Source: Patescibacteria group bacterium (GTDB lineage: Bacteria > Patescibacteriota > Patescibacteriia > XYB2-FULL-38-15). Taken from it: DNA of 54,453 nucleotides. Below, piece after piece: positions 1 to 41,184 of the stretch; position 1 is the stretch's first letter; every line of letters begins with the position of its first letter. The translations under genes and the position numbers were made by a program. A model generated the notes under the pieces. That model searched no databases and was not told where the DNA came from. It worked only from the letters and a program-made list of their open reading frames with translations. Location of the stretch: positions 1-54,453 of the forward strand of contig JBAZJZ010000004.1 of the NCBI GenBank assembly GCA_041650995.1, written 5' to 3'.

Positions 1-1532
<1,532 letters not shown>

Positions 1533-1720
1533 ACAAGAATTGTTAAAACATACATTTCACAATTCTCGTTTATTTTTTTGGTTCTCTTTTTTATGTTGGG
1601 TTTTTAAGATGCTCTTTTATTCAATTGTTAATGAACAATTTTTTTCTGTTTCTCGCCTCTCGTGTTTTTGACACCAGAAGCGGGAGCAAAAAATAATTTT
1701 TAATTTTTGGGAAAAGGACT

Positions 1721-5725: not shown

Positions 5726-6115
5726 CTAGACCTCGGACCCAGGAAAAGCCCTGAGTCCGATGAGTATGATGAAGAACGCGGCGATCATCCCCCCGACTGA
5801 ACCGTGAACCATCCACCATACGCCGCCGAAATATGCGCCAATGAAAAAGAGCAAAATACTCCCGACGAGAGTCAGGAGACCGACATCCCATGCAACCCTG
5901 TACCAGTCGTCGTATCTTCGTCGACTGACCTTCCAGATGATCGTTACCGCAACGCCACCGAGCGTGACGACTCCAGTAGCGACGCAATAAGGCAGACTCA
6001 TCCCCATGAAGAGCGTGACGACTGCAGCCAAAAAGCCGCCGCCCAAACATGTGAACACCCAGCGGGAGACGATCCAGACGAGCTTCGTGTCGATTTCCTT
6101 TTCCCAAGCCCTCAT
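5726..6115 (-). CDS. Hypothetical 4-TM membrane protein encoded in a high-GC island
   Basis: 129-aa ORF with four hydrophobic helices. A strong SD (GAGGAGGG) lies 6 nt before the ATG. GC is clearly above the flanks. The overlapping 5667..6107 frame translates to Arg/Gly/His-rich low-quality sequence. Confidence 0.7.
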   Translation of the reverse strand: MRAWEKEIDTKLVWIVSRWVFTCLGGGFLAAVVTLFMGMSLPYCVATGVVTLGGVAVTIIWKVSRRRYDDWYRVAWDVGLLTLVGSILLFFIGAYFGGVWWMVHGSVGGMIAAFFIILIGLRAFPGSEV

Positions 6116-22575: not shown

Positions 22576-22627
22576 TTGACATTTTCTTCAATTCATGTAA
22601 GAATATAATGTTTGGAACGTTCCAAAC
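22576..22627 (+). promoter_or_regulatory. Promoter-like region plus an 18-bp perfect palindrome upstream of the GC-rich lipoprotein gene
   Basis: TTGACA lies at 22576-22581. There are two candidate -10 elements: TG-n-AAGAAT (17-nt spacing) and TATAAT at 22604-22609 (22-nt spacing, too long). The palindrome GTTTGGAAC|GTTCCAAAC at 22610-22627 lies between the -10 region and the SD AGGAGAGGAGGGG. Confidence 0.55.
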
Positions 22628-22646: not shown

Positions 22647-23351
22647 ATGGAAACCAAGCTGGCAACGATCGCGGTTGCTCTCGTGACGTTCGTGGCGATG
22701 GGCTGCGGCCTGAGCACTGAAGGCATGGGCATGGACGACGGGTCCGCTCCCGATGTCGAGCCCGACGAGATCGAGCCCGACATTTCCGAGGCCGACGCGG
22801 CCGAGGACGATGCCGAGCCAGACGAGACAACGCCGGACGAGACGGCCGAGGATGCTGAGGAAGACCTGCCCGAAGTCACGGACGACGTGGCCGAGGACGG
22901 CGAACCCGAGGATGTCGGCGGAGACGAGGCAGACGGCGACGAAGCCGAAGATGGCGGAGTTGTCGATCCTTGCGAACGTCCCGACATCCCGGCGCTCGGG
23001 ATCTACCTATTCTACTGCTTCACTGACGATCTCCACTCCGACATGACGCTCTGGCTCCAGATTGAACGAGGCGGACTGCCGATTGTCGGCTGGAGTGAAG
23101 TGACCGGTTGCACGGCAACGGGAGTGCGCTCGATGTTCTGCGAGCTGCCGCTCTACTACAACGCGGTCTATTTCTTCAACATTGAGACCCCCGGCGTCGG
23201 CATCGGCTGGTCCTGCGGACCAGGAACCGACGTGCTCTGGGGTACCCCAAGAATCTGGGTCAACCACGCCGAGCAGACAGTTAGGGTGGTCCCAAACATG
23301 GATGGGGGGTGCAATCATCAATTCACCACCCCGCCCTCCGGACCGCTCTAG
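22647..23351 (+). CDS. High-GC putative lipoprotein with an acidic low-complexity linker and a Cys-containing C-terminal domain
   Basis: 234-aa ORF with a signal peptide ending in the lipobox-like VAMGC. A ~90-aa Asp/Glu/Pro/Ala linker follows, then a ~130-aa domain with 7 Cys. It has a strong SD and a clean terminator. GC is far above the flanks. Confidence 0.75.
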   Translation: METKLATIAVALVTFVAMGCGLSTEGMGMDDGSAPDVEPDEIEPDISEADAAEDDAEPDETTPDETAEDAEEDLPEVTDDVAEDGEPEDVGGDEADGDEAEDGGVVDPCERPDIPALGIYLFYCFTDDLHSDMTLWLQIERGGLPIVGWSEVTGCTATGVRSMFCELPLYYNAVYFFNIETPGVGIGWSCGPGTDVLWGTPRIWVNHAEQTVRVVPNMDGGCNHQFTTPPSGPL

Positions 23352-23360
23352 GCGGTCATC

Positions 23361-23398
23361 CCCCGACGAGAGTTCACTCTTTCGTCGGGGCTTTTTTT
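23361..23398 (+). terminator. Terminator of the GC-rich lipoprotein gene
   Basis: A 9-bp stem CCCCGACGA/TCGTCGGGG followed by CTTTTTTT. Confidence 0.85.
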
Positions 23399-35229: not shown

Positions 35230-35658
35230 ATGACATTCAAAAATAAAATTGCTTTAATTTTACTATTTACTGTTTGTTTGTCATTACTCGTTACGCTGCC
35301 GGTTTACGCTTCCTGGCCGGCGACGCCGCTTCTACCACCGTGCACTTCAAGCGGTAACTGCGGATTTAACGATTTTATTTTACTCGGCATTAATTTAACT
35401 AAATTAATTTTAGGAATGGTTGGCTCACTTGCCCTGCTTTTCTTTATTTATGGAGGCGTTGTATTTCTAATAGCCGGAGGAAAATCAGAAATGATTGACA
35501 AAGGAAAAAAGATTATCACGAACGCCGTAATTGGCGTGGCGATAGTGCTTGGCGCCTGGATAATTGTTAACTTTGCTATTGCTGCTATGACTGGCACGCC
35601 GGTTAGTAACGTTAAAATATTTGGCACACAAGATTGGTGGAAAACCCCAGGAGAATAA
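35230..35658 (+). CDS. TrbC/VirB2-like (T4SS-pilin-like) small secreted membrane protein, paralog 1 (divergent)
   Basis: It has a signal peptide and a short Cys-containing head. The two-helix module reads LILGMVGSLALLFFIYGGVVFLIAGGKSEMIDKGKKIITNAVIGVAIVLGAWIIVNF. Confidence 0.7.
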   Translation: MTFKNKIALILLFTVCLSLLVTLPVYASWPATPLLPPCTSSGNCGFNDFILLGINLTKLILGMVGSLALLFFIYGGVVFLIAGGKSEMIDKGKKIITNAVIGVAIVLGAWIIVNFAIAAMTGTPVSNVKIFGTQDWWKTPGE

Positions 35659-35706
35659 ACGACTACTTCGCCTTCCGGAGAAAGTACAACTCCATAATTT
35701 AAAAAT

Positions 35707-36408
35707 ATGAACCCAAAAAAATATTTTAAATTTGTGATTTATATCTGGTCGATTTTATTAATGACCCTGATGTCTACCCAAATGACTTTTGCCGTGACTC
35801 TAGAAGAATTGCGTGCTTTGTCCGGAAGAATGGAAGCTGATTGCGCGGGGATTGAACCAGCAACTCGAATACTAACCGATTTAAATAATCGCATAACCGC
35901 CCTGGAAGAAACAAAAAATAGAAATCAAGAAGTATATGATCGTATGCGACCAGATTGTGGAACTACCATAACTATAGAAGATTGCGAAGCTCAACTTGAC
36001 TTAATTTCAAGCCAGATAACCCAACTTCTTGATTTAATTTCACAACGAAACACTGAAGTAGAAAAAGCTCAGATAGAAATTGACAAATGCCGAGCCGCAA
36101 CTGAAGCCTCTCAAGCGACAACGGGAGCAATAACTGGGACTACTGGCCCAATAGAATGGACTTCGCCAATCGGCGCTGTTTCTCCGACTCAACTTATCGG
36201 TAAGGCTATCAAAACTGTTTTAGGAATTCTCGGCGCGATTGCCCTTTTAATTTTTGTCTACGGCGGTTTTGTCTGGATGACTTCCGGCGGCAGTCCGGAA
36301 AAAATAAAAACGGCGCGCATGACTTTGGTTTGGGCGGTTCTTGGCATGGCCGTAATTTTCTTAAGTTATGCCGCGGTTGATTTTGTCCTTAAAGCTTTTG
36401 GCGTTTAA
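35707..36408 (+). CDS. TrbC/VirB2-like protein, paralog 2, with a coiled-coil/Cys head
   Basis: It has a signal peptide and a ~130-aa helical head with 4 Cys. The module reads LIGKAIKTVLGILGAIALLIFVYGGFVWMTSGGSPEKIKTARMTLVWAVLGMAVIFLSYAAVDFVLKAFGV. Confidence 0.75.
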   Translation: MNPKKYFKFVIYIWSILLMTLMSTQMTFAVTLEELRALSGRMEADCAGIEPATRILTDLNNRITALEETKNRNQEVYDRMRPDCGTTITIEDCEAQLDLISSQITQLLDLISQRNTEVEKAQIEIDKCRAATEASQATTGAITGTTGPIEWTSPIGAVSPTQLIGKAIKTVLGILGAIALLIFVYGGFVWMTSGGSPEKIKTARMTLVWAVLGMAVIFLSYAAVDFVLKAFGV

Positions 36409-36409
36409 A

Positions 36410-37054
36410 ATGAAAAAATCTATCAAAAATTTATTTTTCTTTTCTCTGGCGGTATCTTTCTTTTTGACAAGTTTTTTTCCTTTGTCAGTGCTTGCCTTCA
36501 CGACTTGCAGCACAGACGCGGACTGTGGCGGAGAAGCTGGCTCTTGCGCCACTTATGGCATAATTGTCTCCTGTTTTGATTCAAGCGGAAACGAAGCACC
36601 CAGCTTCATCGGAAATTGCCGTTTAGTTGCCTGCCCTTCTGGGTACACCTGCCAAACTCGCCCGGCAGGTAATTATTGTTCTTCGCCCACCCCCACCATG
36701 GCCGCCACAACGTGTCCAGAAGGTCAAGAATTTAGAGATGGCCGATGCCAAATTATTACTGGAACCGATGGCGCGCCGGAAAAAGTTGAATTGGAAAATC
36801 CTCTTGGCGGCGGAACGGGAATAACTTCTGTCCCGCGCCTTATCGGCAACATTATCAAAACTATTTTGATGGTTGTCGGCGCTTTGGCGCTTGCGATGTT
36901 TGTTTATGGCGGCTTTACTTGGATGACCTCTGGCGGCAGTTCGGAAAAAATACAAAAAGGAAAAAATATTTTAATATGGGCAGTGATTGGGCTTGTAGTA
37001 ATTTTTTCTAGCTATACTTTAGTAGATTTTTTATTAACAGCCTTTGGATTATAA
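36410..37054 (+). CDS. TrbC/VirB2-like protein, paralog 3, with a Cys-rich head
   Basis: The ATG is at 36410 (MKKSIKNLFFF). The head has 12 Cys. The module reads LIGNIIKTILMVVGALALAMFVYGGFTWMTSGGSSEKIQKGKNILIWAVIGLVVIFSSYTLVDFLLTAFGL. Confidence 0.75.
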   Translation: MKKSIKNLFFFSLAVSFFLTSFFPLSVLAFTTCSTDADCGGEAGSCATYGIIVSCFDSSGNEAPSFIGNCRLVACPSGYTCQTRPAGNYCSSPTPTMAATTCPEGQEFRDGRCQIITGTDGAPEKVELENPLGGGTGITSVPRLIGNIIKTILMVVGALALAMFVYGGFTWMTSGGSSEKIQKGKNILIWAVIGLVVIFSSYTLVDFLLTAFGL

Positions 37055-37056
37055 AA

Positions 37057-37728
37057 ATGTTTTTACCGCAAAAAATTTTTATCTTCAAAACCTGGACTAT
37101 TTTTTCTATTTTTTTCCTTTTTCTCCTACTACCACTTTCCTTAGTCGAAGCGGCCGAAGAATGCCGTTGCTACCTCACCTCGCCATACTTCCATGATGAT
37201 CGTGACAGATGTTTAACCGACTGCGCTATAACTTGCCGCGATCTCGGCCCGGAATGGGCCAGAGAAGCAGGCGTTGAAGGGGCATCGGCCATCCAATTTT
37301 TGCCTACATGCGAATCTTTTGATAGGCAGTGGCAATGCCAATGTTTTATCCGCCAACCAGGTATAGAAATATCTGCTTGCGAAGATTATTGTGAATCAAT
37401 GGGATTGACATACCTTACTAAGGAAGAAGAAACCGAGATACCGCCCACCGAAGAAGAGCTTTTCCCGACTTATAAAATAAAGTCTCCCATTGGCGAGGTA
37501 ACCGGACCAGAGCTTATTGGCAGAATCATTAAAACAATTCTTGGTGTTGTTGGCGCCCTGGCGCTCGCGATGTTTGTTTTTGGCGGATTTACTTGGTTGA
37601 CCTCGGGCGGAAGCCCTGATAAAATAAAGAAAGGCAAAGATATTTTAATGTGGGCAGTAATTGGTCTTATTATAATTTTTACAAGTTACACATTGGTTGA
37701 TTTTATCCTTACAGCATTTGGATTATAA
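37057..37728 (+). CDS. TrbC/VirB2-like protein, paralog 4, with a Cys-rich head
   Basis: The head has 12 Cys and is unrelated in sequence to the paralog 3 head. The module reads LIGRIIKTILGVVGALALAMFVFGGFTWLTSGGSPDKIKKGKDILMWAVIGLIIIFTSYTLVDFILTAFGL. Confidence 0.75.
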   Translation: MFLPQKIFIFKTWTIFSIFFLFLLLPLSLVEAAEECRCYLTSPYFHDDRDRCLTDCAITCRDLGPEWAREAGVEGASAIQFLPTCESFDRQWQCQCFIRQPGIEISACEDYCESMGLTYLTKEEETEIPPTEEELFPTYKIKSPIGEVTGPELIGRIIKTILGVVGALALAMFVFGGFTWLTSGGSPDKIKKGKDILMWAVIGLIIIFTSYTLVDFILTAFGL

Positions 37729-37773
37729 TCTTCTACAAAATATTTGTAGAAAACCTGAAAGGGGGTGAAGAAA

Positions 37774-38142
37774 ATGTTAAAAAAAGTATTTTTCTGCTTA
37801 ACCATCCTGAGTCTTTTGACTCCAGTTTTGGTCTCCGCGCAAACCAATGATATCTTGGGCCTGAATATCATTAACAACGCGAATATCGGCTTGCAAGCTT
37901 CAGATCCGAGAGCTGTTGCCGCGAGAATCATTAACGTGGCATTGGGCTTCTTGGGCATCATTGCCGTGGTCATTGTTCTTTACGGCGGCTTTATGTGGAT
38001 GACGGCGGCTGGCAACGAGGAAAGAATTTCCAAAGCGAAACAAATCCTCACTGCCGGTATTATCGGCTTGGTCATTATTGTAATGGCCTGGGCAATCGCT
38101 TCGTATGTTGTCAGAACTTTGATGAACGTTACAAATACCTAA
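37774..38142 (+). CDS. TrbC/VirB2-like protein, paralog 5 (short head)
   Basis: The ATG at 37774 follows the SD AAGGGGG. The module reads ARIINVALGFLGIIAVVIVLYGGFMWMTAAGNEERISKAKQILTAGIIGLVIIVMAWAIASYV. Confidence 0.75.
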   Translation: MLKKVFFCLTILSLLTPVLVSAQTNDILGLNIINNANIGLQASDPRAVAARIINVALGFLGIIAVVIVLYGGFMWMTAAGNEERISKAKQILTAGIIGLVIIVMAWAIASYVVRTLMNVTNT

Positions 38143-38151
38143 TTTAGAAAG

Positions 38152-38175
38152 TGGGGTGGGGTTTTCCCCACCCCA
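38152..38175 (+). terminator. Strong GC-rich hairpin inside the pilin-like array (internal terminator or processing site)
   Basis: A 10-bp stem TGGGGTGGGG/CCCCACCCCA with a TTTT loop. The 3' tail is T-poor (TTCTCG). Confidence 0.45.
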
Positions 38176-38196
38176 TTCTCGATTATCCCGAAGTTT

Positions 38197-38619
38197 ATGT
38201 TTTTAAAAATAGGAAAAGTAAAAATTTTTAAATTTATCTGTGTCGCGGCAGTTCTTTTTACGATTTTTAGCGCGAATCTTGCTCTCGCCCAGCCGGCTGA
38301 CGGAGAAGACGCTGGAGACACAAGCGGCGTTCGTTCCGGACTTGGCGAGGCGGCCGAAGTTGCTGGCATTCCCCAAGAAGGAGAGAGTTCAATTCCCGCG
38401 CGCATTGGCAGCATTATTTCTTACGCCTTGGGTTTTGTCGGAGTTGTCTTTTTAATTTTAATGATCGCCGGCGGCTTGATGTGGATGACAGCGGCGGGCA
38501 ACGATGAACGAGTTAACAAGGCAAAAAGCTTAATAACGAACGCCGTGATTGGCATGGTAATTGTTTTTTCCGCTTACGCCATTACTTATTTTGTCACGGA
38601 AACTTTACTCGGCGACTAA
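38197..38619 (+). CDS. TrbC/VirB2-like protein, paralog 6
   Basis: The module reads RIGSIISYALGFVGVVFLILMIAGGLMWMTAAGNDERVNKAKSLITNAVIGMVIVFSAYAITYFV. Confidence 0.75.
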   Translation: MFLKIGKVKIFKFICVAAVLFTIFSANLALAQPADGEDAGDTSGVRSGLGEAAEVAGIPQEGESSIPARIGSIISYALGFVGVVFLILMIAGGLMWMTAAGNDERVNKAKSLITNAVIGMVIVFSAYAITYFVTETLLGD

Positions 38620-38697
38620 TAAAGGGTATTCACCCTGTACTTGCTTGCTCGTTCGAAAATTAAAATTTAATTTTCATTTAACTCCCCCACTGCGCGA

Positions 38698-39189
38698 ATG
38701 AAAAAATATCAAAAAATTTTAATTGTCTCTGTTCTGCTGCTCGTCGGATTTTTTATTTTTTATCAAGCAACTTCAGCGGCAGTTTTCGGCGGCCTTGAAA
38801 GCGCGCGGAAGTCAGCCGGGTTTTCCGAAGAAACAAGTCTGGAAGCGAGAATCGGATCAATTATTTCCATTGTTTTAGGCTTTGTCGGGGTAATTTTTTT
38901 AGGGCTTACTCTTTATGGCGGATTTATTTGGATGGTGGCGCGTGGCAATGAGCAGGAAATTGAAAAAGCAAAAAAACTTATTGAAGCGGCTGTTATTGGT
39001 TTAGCGATTGTCTTTGCCGCTTACGCCATTACTTATTTTGTAACTTCCCGTTTGTTGCCGACCGAGGGCGGCGGCGAAGTAACCTGCGCGGAAACGGAAA
39101 CCCCCTGCTCTTGTCCGGGAGGAACATTTTGTATGGATCCCACTGTTTGGAGCGGCTGTGACGCTTTTTGTGCCGGCGAAGAACCGTAA
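38698..39189 (+). CDS. TrbC/VirB2-like protein, paralog 7, with a C-terminal Cys-rich tail
   Basis: The module reads RIGSIISIVLGFVGVIFLGLTLYGGFIWMVARGNEQEIEKAKKLIEAAVIGLAIVFAAYAITYFV. It is followed by EVTCAETETPCSCPGGTFCMDPTVWSGCDAFCAGEEP. Confidence 0.75.
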   Translation: MKKYQKILIVSVLLLVGFFIFYQATSAAVFGGLESARKSAGFSEETSLEARIGSIISIVLGFVGVIFLGLTLYGGFIWMVARGNEQEIEKAKKLIEAAVIGLAIVFAAYAITYFVTSRLLPTEGGGEVTCAETETPCSCPGGTFCMDPTVWSGCDAFCAGEEP

Positions 39190-39206
39190 ATTATTAAATT
39201 ATAAAT

Positions 39207-39620
39207 ATGTTTAAATTCCAAAAAATCTTTTTAATCTGTTGCGTTATTTTTGCGTTGGCCTCTCTTTTAACTCCTCTTTTTTCCCAAGCCGCGCCTTCTG
39301 ATGCTCTAGAAAAATTAAAATCAGTCGGCGGTGAAGCTTACGGAGTCGGCGCCGAAGAACCACGGAGCCTCCCCGAAATTATCGGAGGAATTATTCAAAC
39401 CGCCCTTAGTATTTTGGGGATAGTCGCCGCGCTTCTAATTATCTACGCGGGCTATATTTGGATGACGGCCCGCGGCAAAGAAGAGCGTGTTACAAAAGCA
39501 AAAGAAACTTTGGAAGCGGCAATTATCGGTTTAATTATTATTATGGCTGCTTATGCCATTACTTATTTTGTCGTGGACCGCTTGATGCAAGCTTCAAGCA
39601 CTCCAACCGTAGCGCCTTAA
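39207..39620 (+). CDS. TrbC/VirB2-like protein, paralog 8
   Basis: The module reads IIGGIIQTALSILGIVAALLIIYAGYIWMTARGKEERVTKAKETLEAAIIGLIIIMAAYAITYFV. Confidence 0.75.
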   Translation: MFKFQKIFLICCVIFALASLLTPLFSQAAPSDALEKLKSVGGEAYGVGAEEPRSLPEIIGGIIQTALSILGIVAALLIIYAGYIWMTARGKEERVTKAKETLEAAIIGLIIIMAAYAITYFVVDRLMQASSTPTVAP

Positions 39621-39631
39621 TTTAAAAAAAT

Positions 39632-40036
39632 ATGAAAATTATTTCTAAAAAATTATTTGTCTCAACTGTCCTTGCTTCAATTCTCATTCTTTCTGCTCTG
39701 CCTGTTTTTGCTCAAGTGGAAGAACTACAAAATTTTGGCAAGGCAGCTTATGGCGAAGCTCAGGCTCAGTATGCCGAAGAACAGGGGCCACTCATCATTG
39801 CCGGTAAAATCATAAATATCGCTCTTGGAGCAATAGGCACAATCGTGGTAATTCTCTTTATTTTTAGTGGATTTCTCTGGATGACGGCGGCGGGCAACGA
39901 AGAAAAAATTACTAAAGCCAAAAGAATTCTTACCAATGCGATCATTGGAACCGTGATTGTCGTGATGGCCTATGCCATTTCCTACTTTGTTATTAATCAA
40001 TTACTCCGAGCCTCTGGCGCGCCAGTTACTCCGTAA
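39632..40036 (+). CDS. TrbC/VirB2-like protein, paralog 9
   Basis: The module reads IAGKIINIALGAIGTIVVILFIFSGFLWMTAAGNEEKITKAKRILTNAIIGTVIVVMAYAISYFV. Confidence 0.75.
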   Translation: MKIISKKLFVSTVLASILILSALPVFAQVEELQNFGKAAYGEAQAQYAEEQGPLIIAGKIINIALGAIGTIVVILFIFSGFLWMTAAGNEEKITKAKRILTNAIIGTVIVVMAYAISYFVINQLLRASGAPVTP

Positions 40037-40051
40037 ATTGCAAATTATAAA

Positions 40052-40082
40052 ATCCCCCGCGAGATAGTCGGGGGATTTTTTT
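40052..40082 (+). terminator. Terminator closing the pilin-like array
   Basis: An 8-bp stem ATCCCCCG/CGGGGGAT followed by T7. Confidence 0.85.
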
Positions 40083-40084
40083 AT

Positions 40085-40120
40085 TAAAAAAGAGGCGCCC
40101 CAGTTTGCACTGAAGCGCCT
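40085..40120 (-). terminator. Putative terminator of the GC-rich two-gene operon
   Basis: On the minus strand the stem AGGCGC/GCGCCT with a 16-nt loop is followed by CTTTTTT. Confidence 0.45.
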
Positions 40121-40144
40121 TACCCCCTGAATCGGCCGACCCGT

Positions 40145-40678
40145 TTAGAACGGGCTGCCGATATTCACCTCCTGGCTCTCCCATCCGACACAGAACTGGC
40201 GTTCCCGGTCGGAACGAATCACCGGCCGTTCGAAGTTCGGGGCGAGGTACGCCTCGAACTCGAAGTGGTGTGTCTCGCAGCCAGACCGGAGGTTGGTCTC
40301 GGCGAGCGGAGCGTAGAACTGCCCCTCAACGCGCGGCGGGAGGAGTGGCAGTCCCGCGTAGAGGTCGGAAAAGGACAAATCCACTCCGTCCATCCTGACG
40401 CGAACGTACCAGTCCGTGTTGTTGACGACACGGACGAGGTGGGCGTCACGCCACTGGTTCGGGTACCCGTGGCCCTCAACGAAGGCCAGACCCTCCGGCG
40501 GAGGCGGGGGAATGAAGTATCCGCCGCCGTAGCCGCCACCGTAGCCCATGGCTCCTCCCATCGAAGTGCCGTAGGCTGCCGGCGGAACGTAGCCCGAGAA
40601 CCCCGGGGCGTAGCCGCCCCAGATGCCGCAGCCGACCGGCAGGATCGCGAAGAGAACCGCGAACACGTACTTCGTCAT
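40145..40678 (-). CDS. High-GC putative lipoprotein with a Gly/Tyr-rich segment
   Basis: 177-aa ORF with a signal peptide ending in the lipobox LPVGC. A GYGGGYGGGY/Pro-rich stretch follows, then a ~110-aa domain. Its start overlaps the upstream stop (ATGA). Confidence 0.7.
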   Translation of the reverse strand: MTKYVFAVLFAILPVGCGIWGGYAPGFSGYVPPAAYGTSMGGAMGYGGGYGGGYFIPPPPPEGLAFVEGHGYPNQWRDAHLVRVVNNTDWYVRVRMDGVDLSFSDLYAGLPLLPPRVEGQFYAPLAETNLRSGCETHHFEFEAYLAPNFERPVIRSDRERQFCVGWESQEVNIGSPF

Positions 40679-41073
40679 GGCTGCCTCCCCTCGAGGGCGT
40701 CCAAACGCCTCTCGAAATCAGTTGCCTGGTCTTCGAGTCCACGCGCTCGCTCTTCGAGAGCTGGCGTTGATACCGGGCGACCATAGGCCGGGTAGTAGTA
40801 GGACGGATCCACCCGTCCGTAACTCCCGTACCCGTAATAGCCGCTGTAGCCGCGCCAGCCCATGAAAAACTCGGGGTGAGCTTCGAGCGCACGACCTTCG
40901 GCCCGAACGCGATCAGCTTGAGCTGACATGAGATCGGCCGAAGCCGCCTCCATGGGACCCGGCCCCATGAAACCGCTGGCGGAGTACTCGAGCCCGCCAC
41001 TTCGAAGTCCCGTATGGGACGTGAAGCAGCCAGACATCAGGAACGCCACGAACGTCACGAGAGCAACCCTCAT
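40675..41073 (-). CDS. High-GC putative lipoprotein with a Tyr/Gly-rich segment and a C-terminal coiled coil
   Basis: The ATG at 41073 lies 6 nt after GGGAGG (a GTG at 41076 is also possible). The signal peptide MRVALVTFVAFLMSGC has a lipobox. It also has a GYSGYYGYGSYG..YYYPAYG segment and a heptad-like LEERARGLEDQATDFERRLDALEG. Confidence 0.7.
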   Translation of the reverse strand: MRVALVTFVAFLMSGCFTSHTGLRSGGLEYSASGFMGPGPMEAASADLMSAQADRVRAEGRALEAHPEFFMGWRGYSGYYGYGSYGRVDPSYYYPAYGRPVSTPALEERARGLEDQATDFERRLDALEGRQP

Positions 41074-41155
41074 CACGCACCTCCCTGGGGCCCAAAGCCC
41101 CTTGTTTTAGCGAAAAAATGAACTTCCGTACCCCCATTCAGAGGCAGGACATTTT

Positions 41156-41184
41156 ACTTTAGCATAAAAAACTATTTTCGTCAA
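41156..41184 (-). promoter_or_regulatory. Sigma70-type promoter of the GC-rich operon, located in AT-rich DNA
   Basis: The minus strand reads TTGACG, a 17-nt spacer, then TAAAGT, about 80 nt upstream of the start codon. Confidence 0.55.

Follow-up and report, generated by a model that had tools for sequence, protein, structure and literature searches.

In Patescibacteria, VirB2-like pilins (PF18895/PF04956) are encoded in gene arrays, and such an array is essential in Ca. S. epibionticum; accompanying lipoproteins are not described in that study, and no profile exists for VirB7 (PMC12102498). The two-gene pair described here (genes A and B) is physically linked to an array of this kind and shares its fast, mosaic evolution, but neither A nor B is a pilin, and neither matches the profile of any T4SS component. 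VirB7-type accessory lipoproteins are small, are encoded with T4SS genes, and bind and stabilise a core protein of VirB9 type; A–B, for its part, constantly adjoins VirB2-like pilin genes. The Vsp/Vlp proteins of Mollicutes are small, lipid-anchored, low-complexity, fast-evolving surface proteins that are shuffled by recombination, and their genes are not known to be compositional outliers; the A–B pair has no sequence relation to them, and has neither a multigene locus for phase variation nor switching driven by repeats. A sharp, gene-precise jump in GC content and codon usage is common to A–B and transferred genomic islands. In contrast to such islands, A–B occurs in all relatives, lacks an integrase, tRNA, att site or donor homologues, and has a composition that is stable over synonymous saturation. 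GC-biased gene conversion in bacteria also resembles the present case, with high GC3 at a recombining locus and a tilt towards W→S changes. However, the A–B effect (around +0.35–0.4 GC3 in around 1 kb) is far beyond the reported genome-wide effect: Lassalle and colleagues reportedly found in 2015 that recombination-linked GC3 differences in bacteria are a few points, genome-wide, and not 40.

The window, that is, the whole stretch of 54453 nucleotides analysed here, has a GC content of 42.2%, and the most GC-rich of all its 1-kb segments is the block 40085–41100 (63.8%; z = 4.8). A 100-nt scan runs from ~0.47 to 0.59–0.72 in the block and drops to 0.24–0.35 at ~40090 and ~41100. The original prediction had described about 1 kb of 63% GC against about 42%, with borders precise to the gene, containing two minus-strand genes with an ATGA overlap, a TTGACG-17-TAAAGT promoter and a terminator; all of these features were recovered by our scans and open reading frames. 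The positions of the features are given in Table 1.

Table 1. Features of the A–B locus and its surroundings in the window
Feature	Position	Strand	Description
VirB2-like T4SS_pilin (PF18895) array	35230..40036	+	Nine genes; Pfam matches
Pilin-array terminator	40043..40085	+	Inverted repeat I1; back to back with A–B terminator
A–B intrinsic terminator	40083..40120 (scan match 40120->40093)	-	12-bp stem and T run
Gene B	40145..40678	-	177 aa predicted lipoprotein
ATGA stop/start overlap	40675..40678	-	Couples A and B
Gene A	40675..41073	-	132 aa predicted lipoprotein; alternative GTG start at 41076 gives 133 aa
25-nt stretch	41044..41068	-	Within the codons for the A signal peptide; repeated identically at 22673-22697
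5' leader	41077..41150	-	Two hairpins; conserved in alignment of 8 loci
A–B promoter	41156..41184	-	TTGACG, 17-nt spacer, TG and TAAAGT, in AT-rich DNA; consensus scan

The GC contents at the three codon positions are 0.65/0.55/0.66 in A and 0.65/0.48/0.82 in B, compared with 0.55/0.35/0.42 in rpoB. The proposed comparison of GC3 and codon usage thus shows a block that is strongly atypical (GC3 0.66–0.82 versus 0.42), in composition and codon usage alike, as a genomic island would be: AAG makes up 95% of the Lys codons versus 11%, and the usage of TTC (86% versus 24%) and CAG (84% versus 29%) is similarly shifted. Codons ending in C and those ending in G are both raised across all amino acids, pointing to a general GC pressure. 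Lys is almost fully replaced by Arg in the block proteins (0.7% of residues versus 8.3%), and the 30 nt 3' of the stop codon have a GC content of 0.53–0.73 in all loci. GC3 is equally high in the codons for the signal peptide, for the disordered region and for the folded domain. Amino-acid bias alone was therefore rejected as the cause, since GC3 reaches 0.8–0.9 outside the Gly/Tyr stretches too, in the folded domain as in the signal peptide. Furthermore, GC richness is not a property of lipoprotein genes only: two genes for small polytopic membrane proteins are GC3 outliers as well.

The predicted signal peptide of A ends in ...FLMSGC, and S14, G15 and C16 are invariant in 14 sequences. Conserved motifs of A are the invariant SGCF and a helix (PMEAA.ADLTSAQADRVRAE..EAHPE); residues 71–100 are Gly/Tyr-rich and disordered (MGWRGYSGYYGYGSYG...), and the C terminus is predicted to form an acidic helix. 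Where a C-terminal coiled coil was originally proposed for A, only a low-confidence helix is predicted (residues 106–128, pLDDT ~60–70), in a model of A that is itself of low confidence. Lys, Ile and Asn are absent from A, and no family in Pfam, NCBIfam or PHROG reaches threshold. The best weak Pfam matches are the sulphur globule protein PF17228 (E = 0.79; 11 bits versus a gathering threshold of 26.7) and DUF5320 PF17253 (E = 0.05; 15.2 versus 27). A has a Gly/Tyr-rich stretch followed by a helix as these Gly/Tyr structural proteins do, but it scores far below both thresholds, and the resemblance is compositional.

In B, the lipobox is the non-canonical LPVGC, with Pro at −3, in the window and VSGC, SLGC or SFGC in orthologues, and Cys17 is invariant across the orthologues. 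A disordered Gly/Tyr/Pro-rich linker (residues 18–77; Gly/Tyr-rich part 18–60, GIWGGYAPGFSGYVPPAAYGTSMGGAMGYGGGYGGGY) leads to a predicted beta-sandwich (residues 78–177) with a conserved cysteine pair, Cys134/Cys163. Searches of Pfam, NCBIfam and, by sequence profile, the PDB assigned B to no family (0 matches in the PDB), and Foldseek comparison of the B model with the PDB returned only generic beta-sandwiches, none significant (best E = 0.013, TM ~0.3). The lipobox signal peptides (LMSGC in A, LPVGC in B) and the Gly/Tyr-rich low-complexity segments anticipated for both proteins are present: relative to the pattern [LVI][ASTVI][GAS]C, each has a positively charged start, a hydrophobic core and a Cys that is invariant in its family, and lipidation is predicted for both. 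The dN/dS ratios (0.16–0.64 in A and 0.17–0.41 in B) reveal purifying selection, so A and B are real proteins. In one protein (P0017), an A-like helix (E = 4e-4, a weak match of 29 residues) is fused to a B domain (E = 2e-17), which suggests that A and B are likely partners.

The same 4-nt overlap of A and B is found in nine of nine GC-rich loci, based on gene coordinates. In relatives, both the leader and the −10 region of the promoter are conserved. Immediately 5' of the Shine-Dalgarno sequence GGGAGGTG is the second leader hairpin (41087–41101, GGGGC-N5-GCCCC). Its stem remains paired in the variants GGGTC/GACCC and GGCC/GGCC, and covariation in two of 10 pairs lends the pairing weak support. 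On its left, the GC-rich block is bounded by the A–B terminator itself, and relatives have an equivalent hairpin and T run.

Analyses with tblastn and gene tables located the A→B pair in at least 14 independent loci of Patescibacteria, always tail-to-tail with the final gene for a VirB2-like pilin; in the window, B and this pilin gene (39632..40036) converge. Genes for VirB4/6/9 are absent within 10 kb of the pair. The relatives carrying the pair have RpoB identities of 88–96%, and one is named Ca. Falkowbacteria. In every relative locus sampled the block has 61–65% GC and a GC3 of 0.66–0.82, with flanks of 41–47% GC. One locus (L005) is identical to the window, and in another (L014) the other neighbour of A–B is the gene for trigger factor, not rpoB; the conserved link is thus with the pilin array. 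The presence of the pair is not patchy, as that of a genomic island would be, but extends to the same site in every well-flanked relative (at least 13 loci). Sister genomes had been proposed as a check on acquisition, and the presence of a syntenic and equally GC-rich pair in each relative sampled speaks against a recent import.

The block might instead be an artefact (a chimera or contamination) or conceal a structured RNA or a further gene, overlapping or antisense, and long open frames do exist on both of its strands. However, at least 14 independent assemblies, produced by different projects and assemblers, show the same junctions, which bears out the earlier argument against contig chimerism; among them are a second contig, 100% identical to the window over 20.5 kb, and an 886-kb chromosome (OZ246416.1). 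The alternative-frame open lengths fit the expectation from codon resampling and are not consistently open in orthologues, an Rfam scan of the block gave no structured RNA match, and close alleles differ mainly at third codon positions of the A and B frames as annotated. We regard the chance of an artefact or a hidden feature as close to negligible.

Synonymous sites in the block are saturated or nearly so: pS is 0.5–0.68, where ~0.67 would mark saturation given its base frequencies, and dS in the flanks is 0.8 to >2. Protein identity declines to ~44% in B and to undetectable levels in A while the block is still GC-rich, and across at least 11 lineages GC3 does not fall as divergence grows. 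A block that stays GC-rich and syntenic everywhere in spite of saturation has a composition that is maintained, and is not the decaying scar of an import.

This bears on the original explanation of the composition, acquisition from a high-GC donor followed by domestication. In this model, a single ancient transfer from such a donor, perhaps the host, would have reached the ancestor of the clade, and the present GC content would be a remnant that has not yet ameliorated. The codon and amino-acid usage of the block does resemble that of a high-GC organism, its GC borders are gene-precise with a promoter and terminator of native type, and a 904-bp contig with the fused homologue (L010) has 64–66% GC up to both ends. 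However, a two-state estimate with flank dS of at least 1–2 predicts that a passive deviation decays to ~20–45% of its start, so that a passive remnant would need an impossible starting GC3. The suggested comparison with high-GC taxa also gave nothing in favour of a donor: searches of 5.8 and 1.84 billion sequences revealed no homologue in a demonstrably high-GC genome, the exhaustive search of 1.84 billion proteins yielded only 13 family representatives, and a lone Kitasatospora match was spurious, with the search pattern in non-coding, out-of-frame DNA of 75% GC. Homologues of normal, AT-rich composition throughout the lineage would have pointed to an ancient native gene with unusual amino-acid bias; none occur among the clade members sampled, and one distant homologous pair, in a contig of 32% GC, is near-normal (GC3 0.34–0.44). 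No att-like direct repeats beyond shuffled controls were detected at the block borders in nine loci, no tRNA or mobility genes lie there, and no relatives of the block were found among the viral contigs searched; a mobile element was ruled out on these grounds. A diversity-generating retroelement was also rejected, because there is no template-repeat copy elsewhere in the window and the close-allele differences, at third positions, are not adenine-specific. We consider a single ancient transfer an improbable cause of the composition; an ancient foreign origin of the pair as such is conceivable, but leaves the persistence of its GC unexplained.

The A–B cassette is hypervariable: where RpoB is 96% identical, B is 54% and A only 32% identical. 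Between the window and locus L003, the rpoB spacer is 99–100% identical, the block 71–90% and pilin4 95–97%, whereas between L004 and L008 gene B is 94–97% identical, rpoB 80–85% and gene A 55–70%. The allelic types of A track neither B nor rpoB, and the histories of A, B and rpoB are incongruent. By these alignments, lineages exchange the cassette, the breakpoints lying at or within the GC block. The 25-nt stretch of A has its twin in the window's other GC-rich lipoprotein gene, again among the codons for the signal peptide; this identity gave 0 matches in 100 shuffles, is missing from all other loci, and indicates ectopic gene conversion. The divergence jump confined to the block, the B genes of L004 and L008, the incongruent histories and the 25-nt tract point to locally elevated allelic exchange, as a gene-conversion tract would show.

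Replacement of alleles, with breakpoints at the borders of the block, would also be expected if the block were continually re-imported from an unsampled high-GC reservoir, either a relative or a mobile element, without time to ameliorate. Many homologues lie on contigs of ~1 kb that consist of the block alone, and L010 is GC-rich to its ends. However, the median contig of the collection is ~1 kb anyway, every contig long enough to judge is that of a Patescibacterium with 41–47% GC and the same synteny, and viral matches are absent. Homologous replacement requires Patescibacteria flanks, so that the clade itself is the simplest candidate for the exchange pool, and we find re-import from outside very improbable.

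The block also has a distinct substitution regime, with a per-site S→W/W→S ratio of 0.5–0.7 compared with 1.0–1.3 in the pilins and rpoB, a roughly 2-fold tilt towards W→S, as estimated by parsimony counts from saturated data; the same counts on saturated data imply a GC3* of 0.59–0.65, below the observed 0.73–0.77. Outside the block, divergence correlates with GC as well (rho = 0.26, p = 0.011). The hypervariable segments of the pilins recombine yet locally reach only ~0.45–0.64 GC, and recombination alone may thus be insufficient for a GC3 of 0.8.

Selection on the nucleic acid itself, in which GC-rich coding tunes the expression of envelope genes, is a tenable though rather unlikely alternative. 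It might act through mRNA stability against AU-directed RNases, through slow translation of rare codons aiding the export of disordered lipoproteins, or through avoidance of spurious AT-rich signals. Maintenance of GC3 over saturating divergence would fit such selection, as would the conserved structured 5' leader, which suggests post-transcriptional control, and the retention in the genome of a tRNA-Ser(CGA) that reads only UCG. Furthermore, all four genes of the window with a GC3 of at least 0.66 encode small envelope proteins and have strong promoters and Shine-Dalgarno sequences. However, codon-level translational selection does not predict the shift at non-synonymous sites (Lys to Arg; Ile and Asn absent from A) and in the non-coding 3' end, the joint rise of C- and G-ending codons everywhere is that of a general GC pressure, and the well-expressed rpoB and rpoC have a GC3 of only 0.42.

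The explanation that we hold to be somewhat probable is that A–B is a native, pilin-array-linked, polymorphic lipoprotein pair with a GC equilibrium of its own, kept by GC-biased fixation that is likely to be linked to recombination. The pair would be a lineage-specific two-gene operon of a Falkowbacteria-related clade of Patescibacteria, and the ATGA overlap would deliver A and B in fixed proportion as membrane-anchored surface lipoproteins. Protein A would be composed of a lipid anchor, the conserved helix, a disordered Gly/Tyr spacer and the acidic helix, and protein B of a lipid anchor, a disordered Gly/Tyr/Pro spacer and a Cys-containing beta-sandwich. From the constant tail-to-tail arrangement with the pilin array we infer a joint, pilus-associated role in the envelope; acting together, A and B would form a surface-exposed module associated with the pilus array, and a function in surface contact or in the envelope is the most likely one given the gene context.

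Under the native-pair explanation, deeply divergent alleles would persist, and homologous recombination would swap them among lineages by way of the conserved flanks. Recombination of divergent alleles would produce heteroduplexes, and GC-biased repair of these (biased gene conversion) is the most likely process behind the GC content of the cassette, selection on GC being the alternative. Such GC-biased fixation, confined to the cassette, would keep GC high and give it a separate compositional equilibrium (GC3 ~0.75–0.8 versus ~0.42) that extends to all codon positions, to the amino acids and to the short untranslated ends. More tentatively, the clade may harbor bacterial "mini-isochores", in which single transcription units for hypervariable small envelope proteins, at least three of them in the 54-kb window, are held at a GC3 of ~0.7–0.8, in a genome of ~0.4, by unusually strong biased conversion; this would involve balanced inter-lineage alleles in an organism that naturally imports DNA, with GC held past synonymous saturation. 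We think this possible, but doubtful. Bolder still is the speculation that the cassette is written in the codon dialect of a high-GC host, in which it might be expressed, or with which it might be exchanged, via the adjacent pilus system.

Atypical GC content is routinely read as recent horizontal transfer, and the A–B pair counters that reading: a gene-precise GC jump that is conserved clade-wide past saturation shows that composition alone misleads, and that a local force holds GC3 near 0.8. Whether bacterial GC content exceeds its mutational equilibrium through selection or through biased gene conversion is a long-standing question, for which the A–B block provides a compact natural test bed, combining a length of 1 kb, a 40-point GC3 contrast, sharp borders, many alleles and recombination. 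Our literature search found no description of such GC-rich local gene units in Patescibacteria, and if mini-isochores are real, no prokaryote would offer a sharper known case of base composition driven by recombination. The A–B pair, not described before, constantly accompanies VirB2-like pilin arrays, and because such an array is reported to be essential in Ca. S. epibionticum (PMC12102498), the pair is a candidate surface-contact component of episymbiotic Patescibacteria.

The block at 40085-41100 has a GC content of 63.8%, compared with 42.2% over the whole 54,453-nt window, and is the highest in GC of all 1-kb stretches (z = 4.8), with steps at ~40090 and ~41100 that each span ~50-100 nt. 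The GC-rich block placed by the original prediction between the pilin array and rpoB was therefore recovered, together with its two minus-strand genes joined by an ATGA overlap (A and B), and a consensus scan found the proposed promoter and terminator again. An alternative GTG lies one codon upstream of the ATG of gene A, and the terminator of the pair stands back to back with that of the pilin array.

Features of the island and of further GC-rich genes in the window
Feature	Position	Strand	Properties
Gene A	40675..41073	-	ORF; ATG start; 132 aa; N-terminus MRVALVTFVAFLMSGC
Gene B	40145..40678	-	ORF; 177 aa; N-terminus MTKYVFAVLFAILPVGC
Promoter of A-B	41184->41156	-	TTGACG-17-TG-TAAAGT; consensus scan
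Terminator of A-B	40120->40093	-	12-bp stem + T run; consensus scan
Lipoprotein gene	22647-23351	+	234 aa; …VAMGC; 62.7% GC; GC3 0.75
Promoter of lipoprotein gene	~22577-22612	+	
Terminator of lipoprotein gene	23360-23397	+	
Polytopic membrane protein gene	5726-6115	-	129 aa; 55% GC; GC3 0.68; flanks 0.28-0.30

The 5' leader of the pair (41077-41150, minus strand) is conserved in seven homologous loci (L001, L004, L007, L008, L014, L017 and L022). It carries one hairpin close to the predicted start of the transcript, with a U-rich run behind it, and a second hairpin, GGGGC-N5-GCCCC (variants GGGTC/GACCC and GGCC/GGCC), that abuts the Shine-Dalgarno sequence. This structured leader, for which covariation support is weak, may serve as a stabiliser or in translational control.

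Comparison of codon usage upheld the contrast: GC by codon position is 0.65/0.55/0.66 in A and 0.65/0.48/0.82 in B versus 0.55/0.35/0.42 in rpoB, and third-position GC (GC3) is 0.36-0.45 in the pilin genes. Amino-acid bias alone is ruled out as the cause, because GC3 is also high beyond the Gly/Tyr stretches; it is 0.81-0.94 in signal-peptide codons, 0.79-0.80 in the low-complexity regions and 0.82 in the folded domain of B. Synonymous families all move to C or G (island versus comparison: Lys AAG 95% versus 11%, Phe TTC 86% versus 24%, Gln CAG 84% versus 29%). Amino-acid usage is shifted as well (Lys 0.7% versus 8.3% and Ile 2.4% versus 8.5% of residues, with no Lys, Ile or Asn at all in the gene A product), as are the first 30 nt 3' of the stop codon (GC 0.53-0.73 in every locus), and the pressure toward GC therefore works at the DNA level. 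Overlapping or antisense coding, structured RNA as the content of the block, an att-flanked mobile element and a diversity-generating retroelement target were each tested and rejected.

The prediction had argued against a chimeric contig, and this holds: a second contig (ENA ERZ27247363 k141_617373) shares 20.5 kb of sequence with the window at 100% identity and encodes exactly its B protein, and the same arrangement occurs in many relatives. Homologues form 13 clusters for B and 17 for A, none with an informative name, the few named ones all being 'hypothetical protein'. Their contigs share one gene order: a VirB2-like T4SS_pilin (PF18895) array whose last gene faces B and A tail to tail, and then usually rpoB-rpoC-yebC. 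The island is thus not specific to one strain, the order recurring in the 886-kb chromosome OZ246416.1, the MAGs JBGSRW01 and JAHIRI01, GCA_016214745.1 (named Candidatus Falkowbacteria by NCBI) and several JGI, Logan and ENA contigs. At one locus (L014) trigger factor replaces rpoB as the far neighbour, so that linkage with the pilin array is what has been conserved. RpoB identities of 88-96% among loci place the window in a Falkowbacteria-related clade of Patescibacteria. The record of the complete chromosome OZ246416.1 (L001/L006, 886,192 nt) bears the title 'uncultured Gammaproteobacteria bacterium'. Its RpoB, however, shares 95.8% identity with that of the window, and the chromosome carries the pilin array and island as in the window; the label looks wrong, and the genome is patescibacterial. 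A Ca. Falkowbacteria locus (L022, 8405-8938; P0013) has a second gene with a B-type N-terminus (…SLGCGLWGG…; GC3 0.80) and a Cys-rich C-terminal domain unlike that of B, which looks like a domain replacement inside the cassette.

In each of the 11 loci whose flanks could be measured, block GC is 61.5-64.5% versus 41-47% in the flanks; five additional metagenome loci show the same step, and island GC3 is 0.66-0.82 across relatives. Close alleles differ mainly at third positions. With dN/dS in the annotated frames of 0.16-0.64 (A) and 0.17-0.41 (B), both genes are under purifying selection. The synonymous sites of the island are near saturation (pS 0.5-0.68, saturation being estimated at ~0.67 from island third-position base frequencies; dS of flanking genes 0.8 to above 2), and have therefore turned over while GC3 held. 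Given this turnover, most of the GC deviation of a passive import should have disappeared, a two-state estimate leaving ~20-45% over the shallower splits and less over deeper ones. Crude parsimony counts gave per-site ratios of G/C-to-A/T over A/T-to-G/C changes of 0.5-0.7 in the island versus 1.0-1.3 in the pilins and rpoB, which indicates a different substitution regime.

Import from a high-GC donor with subsequent domestication, as originally proposed, lacks support as an explanation of the composition, and no donor was found. A profile search across the full set of 1.84 billion representative proteins yielded just 13 family members, each a small protein with a lipoprotein-type N-terminus; none was found on viral contigs, and the sole match in a high-GC genome, Kitasatospora, was rejected because the search peptide falls in a non-coding frame. 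The one candidate for a GC-rich genomic context is L010, which has 64-66% GC up to both ends but, at 904 bp, is too short to judge genome GC. A distant relative lies on a 32% GC contig (L011), where a B-like gene precedes an A-like/B-like pair and GC3 is 0.34-0.44 versus 0.25-0.31 in neighbours; the family thus has AT-rich members too, which remain slightly shifted toward GC. Legacy or repeated import is an improbable cause of the bias; very probably the cassette is native and conserved, and its composition is maintained.

Sequence comparisons show this cassette to be hypervariable and recombining. At L027, RpoB is 96% identical, while B is 54% and A 32%. The window and L003 are 99-100% identical in the rpoB-island spacer, 71-90% in the GC block and 95-97% in the adjacent pilin gene, the drop coinciding exactly with the block. 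L004 and L008 share 94-97% identity in B, 80-85% in rpoB and 55-70% in A. Gene A falls into two or more allelic types, and these track neither B nor rpoB. A perfect 25-nt match, absent from all relatives, joins signal-peptide codons (VALVTFVA) of gene A (41044-41068, minus strand) to those of the lipoprotein gene 22647..23351 (22673-22697, plus strand) and suggests that ectopic gene conversion took place recently. Beyond the island, too, local GC rises with local divergence (rho = 0.26, p = 0.011). In the pilin genes, short segments at ~39366-39466, ~38366 and ~36666 differ by 20-27% from the close relative L003 (surroundings 1-5%) and are locally richer in GC (0.44-0.64).

The allelic exchange, the 25-nt tract and the correlation point to a GC bias linked to recombination, and recombination-linked biased conversion is, among the possible causes, the one that we tentatively favour. 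Recombination alone may not suffice, because the hypervariable pilin segments reach only ~0.45-0.64 GC; selection on GC is a less likely cause. On the reading that the evidence favours, the island would be a native, polymorphic, pilin-array-linked lipoprotein cassette held at its own GC equilibrium by a GC-biased fixation process. Our literature search found no account of such a GC-rich cassette in publications.

The A-B island belongs to a wider pattern of GC3 outliers. Just four window genes have GC3 >= 0.66, namely A, B, 22647..23351 and 5726..6115. The product of the lipoprotein gene, a second GC-rich block with gene-precise borders, has an acidic low-complexity region as well as a Cys-rich C-terminal domain. 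In the relatives L019, L020 and L021 the gene likewise follows a Wzy_C gene and is equally GC-rich (GC3 0.64-0.74), even where identity is as low as 49%. The third GC-rich block is 5726-6115, whose product received no family assignment. With a further small membrane-protein gene in L004 (18782-19360, GC3 0.71), it extends the outliers from lipoproteins to small envelope proteins.

The A and B proteins had no matches in Pfam, NCBIfam, PHROG or PDB sequences, and none significant in Foldseek. AlphaFold2, run on the family alignments, gave a low-confidence model of A in which a disordered Gly/Tyr stretch separates a signal helix and a conserved helix (40-65) from a C-terminal helix (106-128). For B it predicted a disordered region (13-77) ahead of a six-strand beta-sandwich (pLDDT about 80-89), in which Cys134 and Cys163 are conserved. 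On L010, a single 254-aa lipoprotein (P0017, 77-841) matches both the A-like helix (E = 4e-4) and the B domain (E = 2e-17); it appears to be a fusion of the two, a hint that A and B interact. Just upstream of the pilin array lies a 23S rRNA intervening-sequence protein gene (PF05635; 34831-35199, plus strand), and the contig begins within a 23S rRNA gene (1-1534, minus strand; model positions 1-1381). VirB2-like pilin arrays occur widely among Patescibacteria, one of them reportedly being essential in a cultivated species (PMC12102498). The lipid anchor and disordered spacers, together with an ATGA coupling that never varies, the probable fusion and a position always next to the pilin array, lead us to infer that A and B may form a two-component, surface-exposed module tied to the VirB2-like pilus system.
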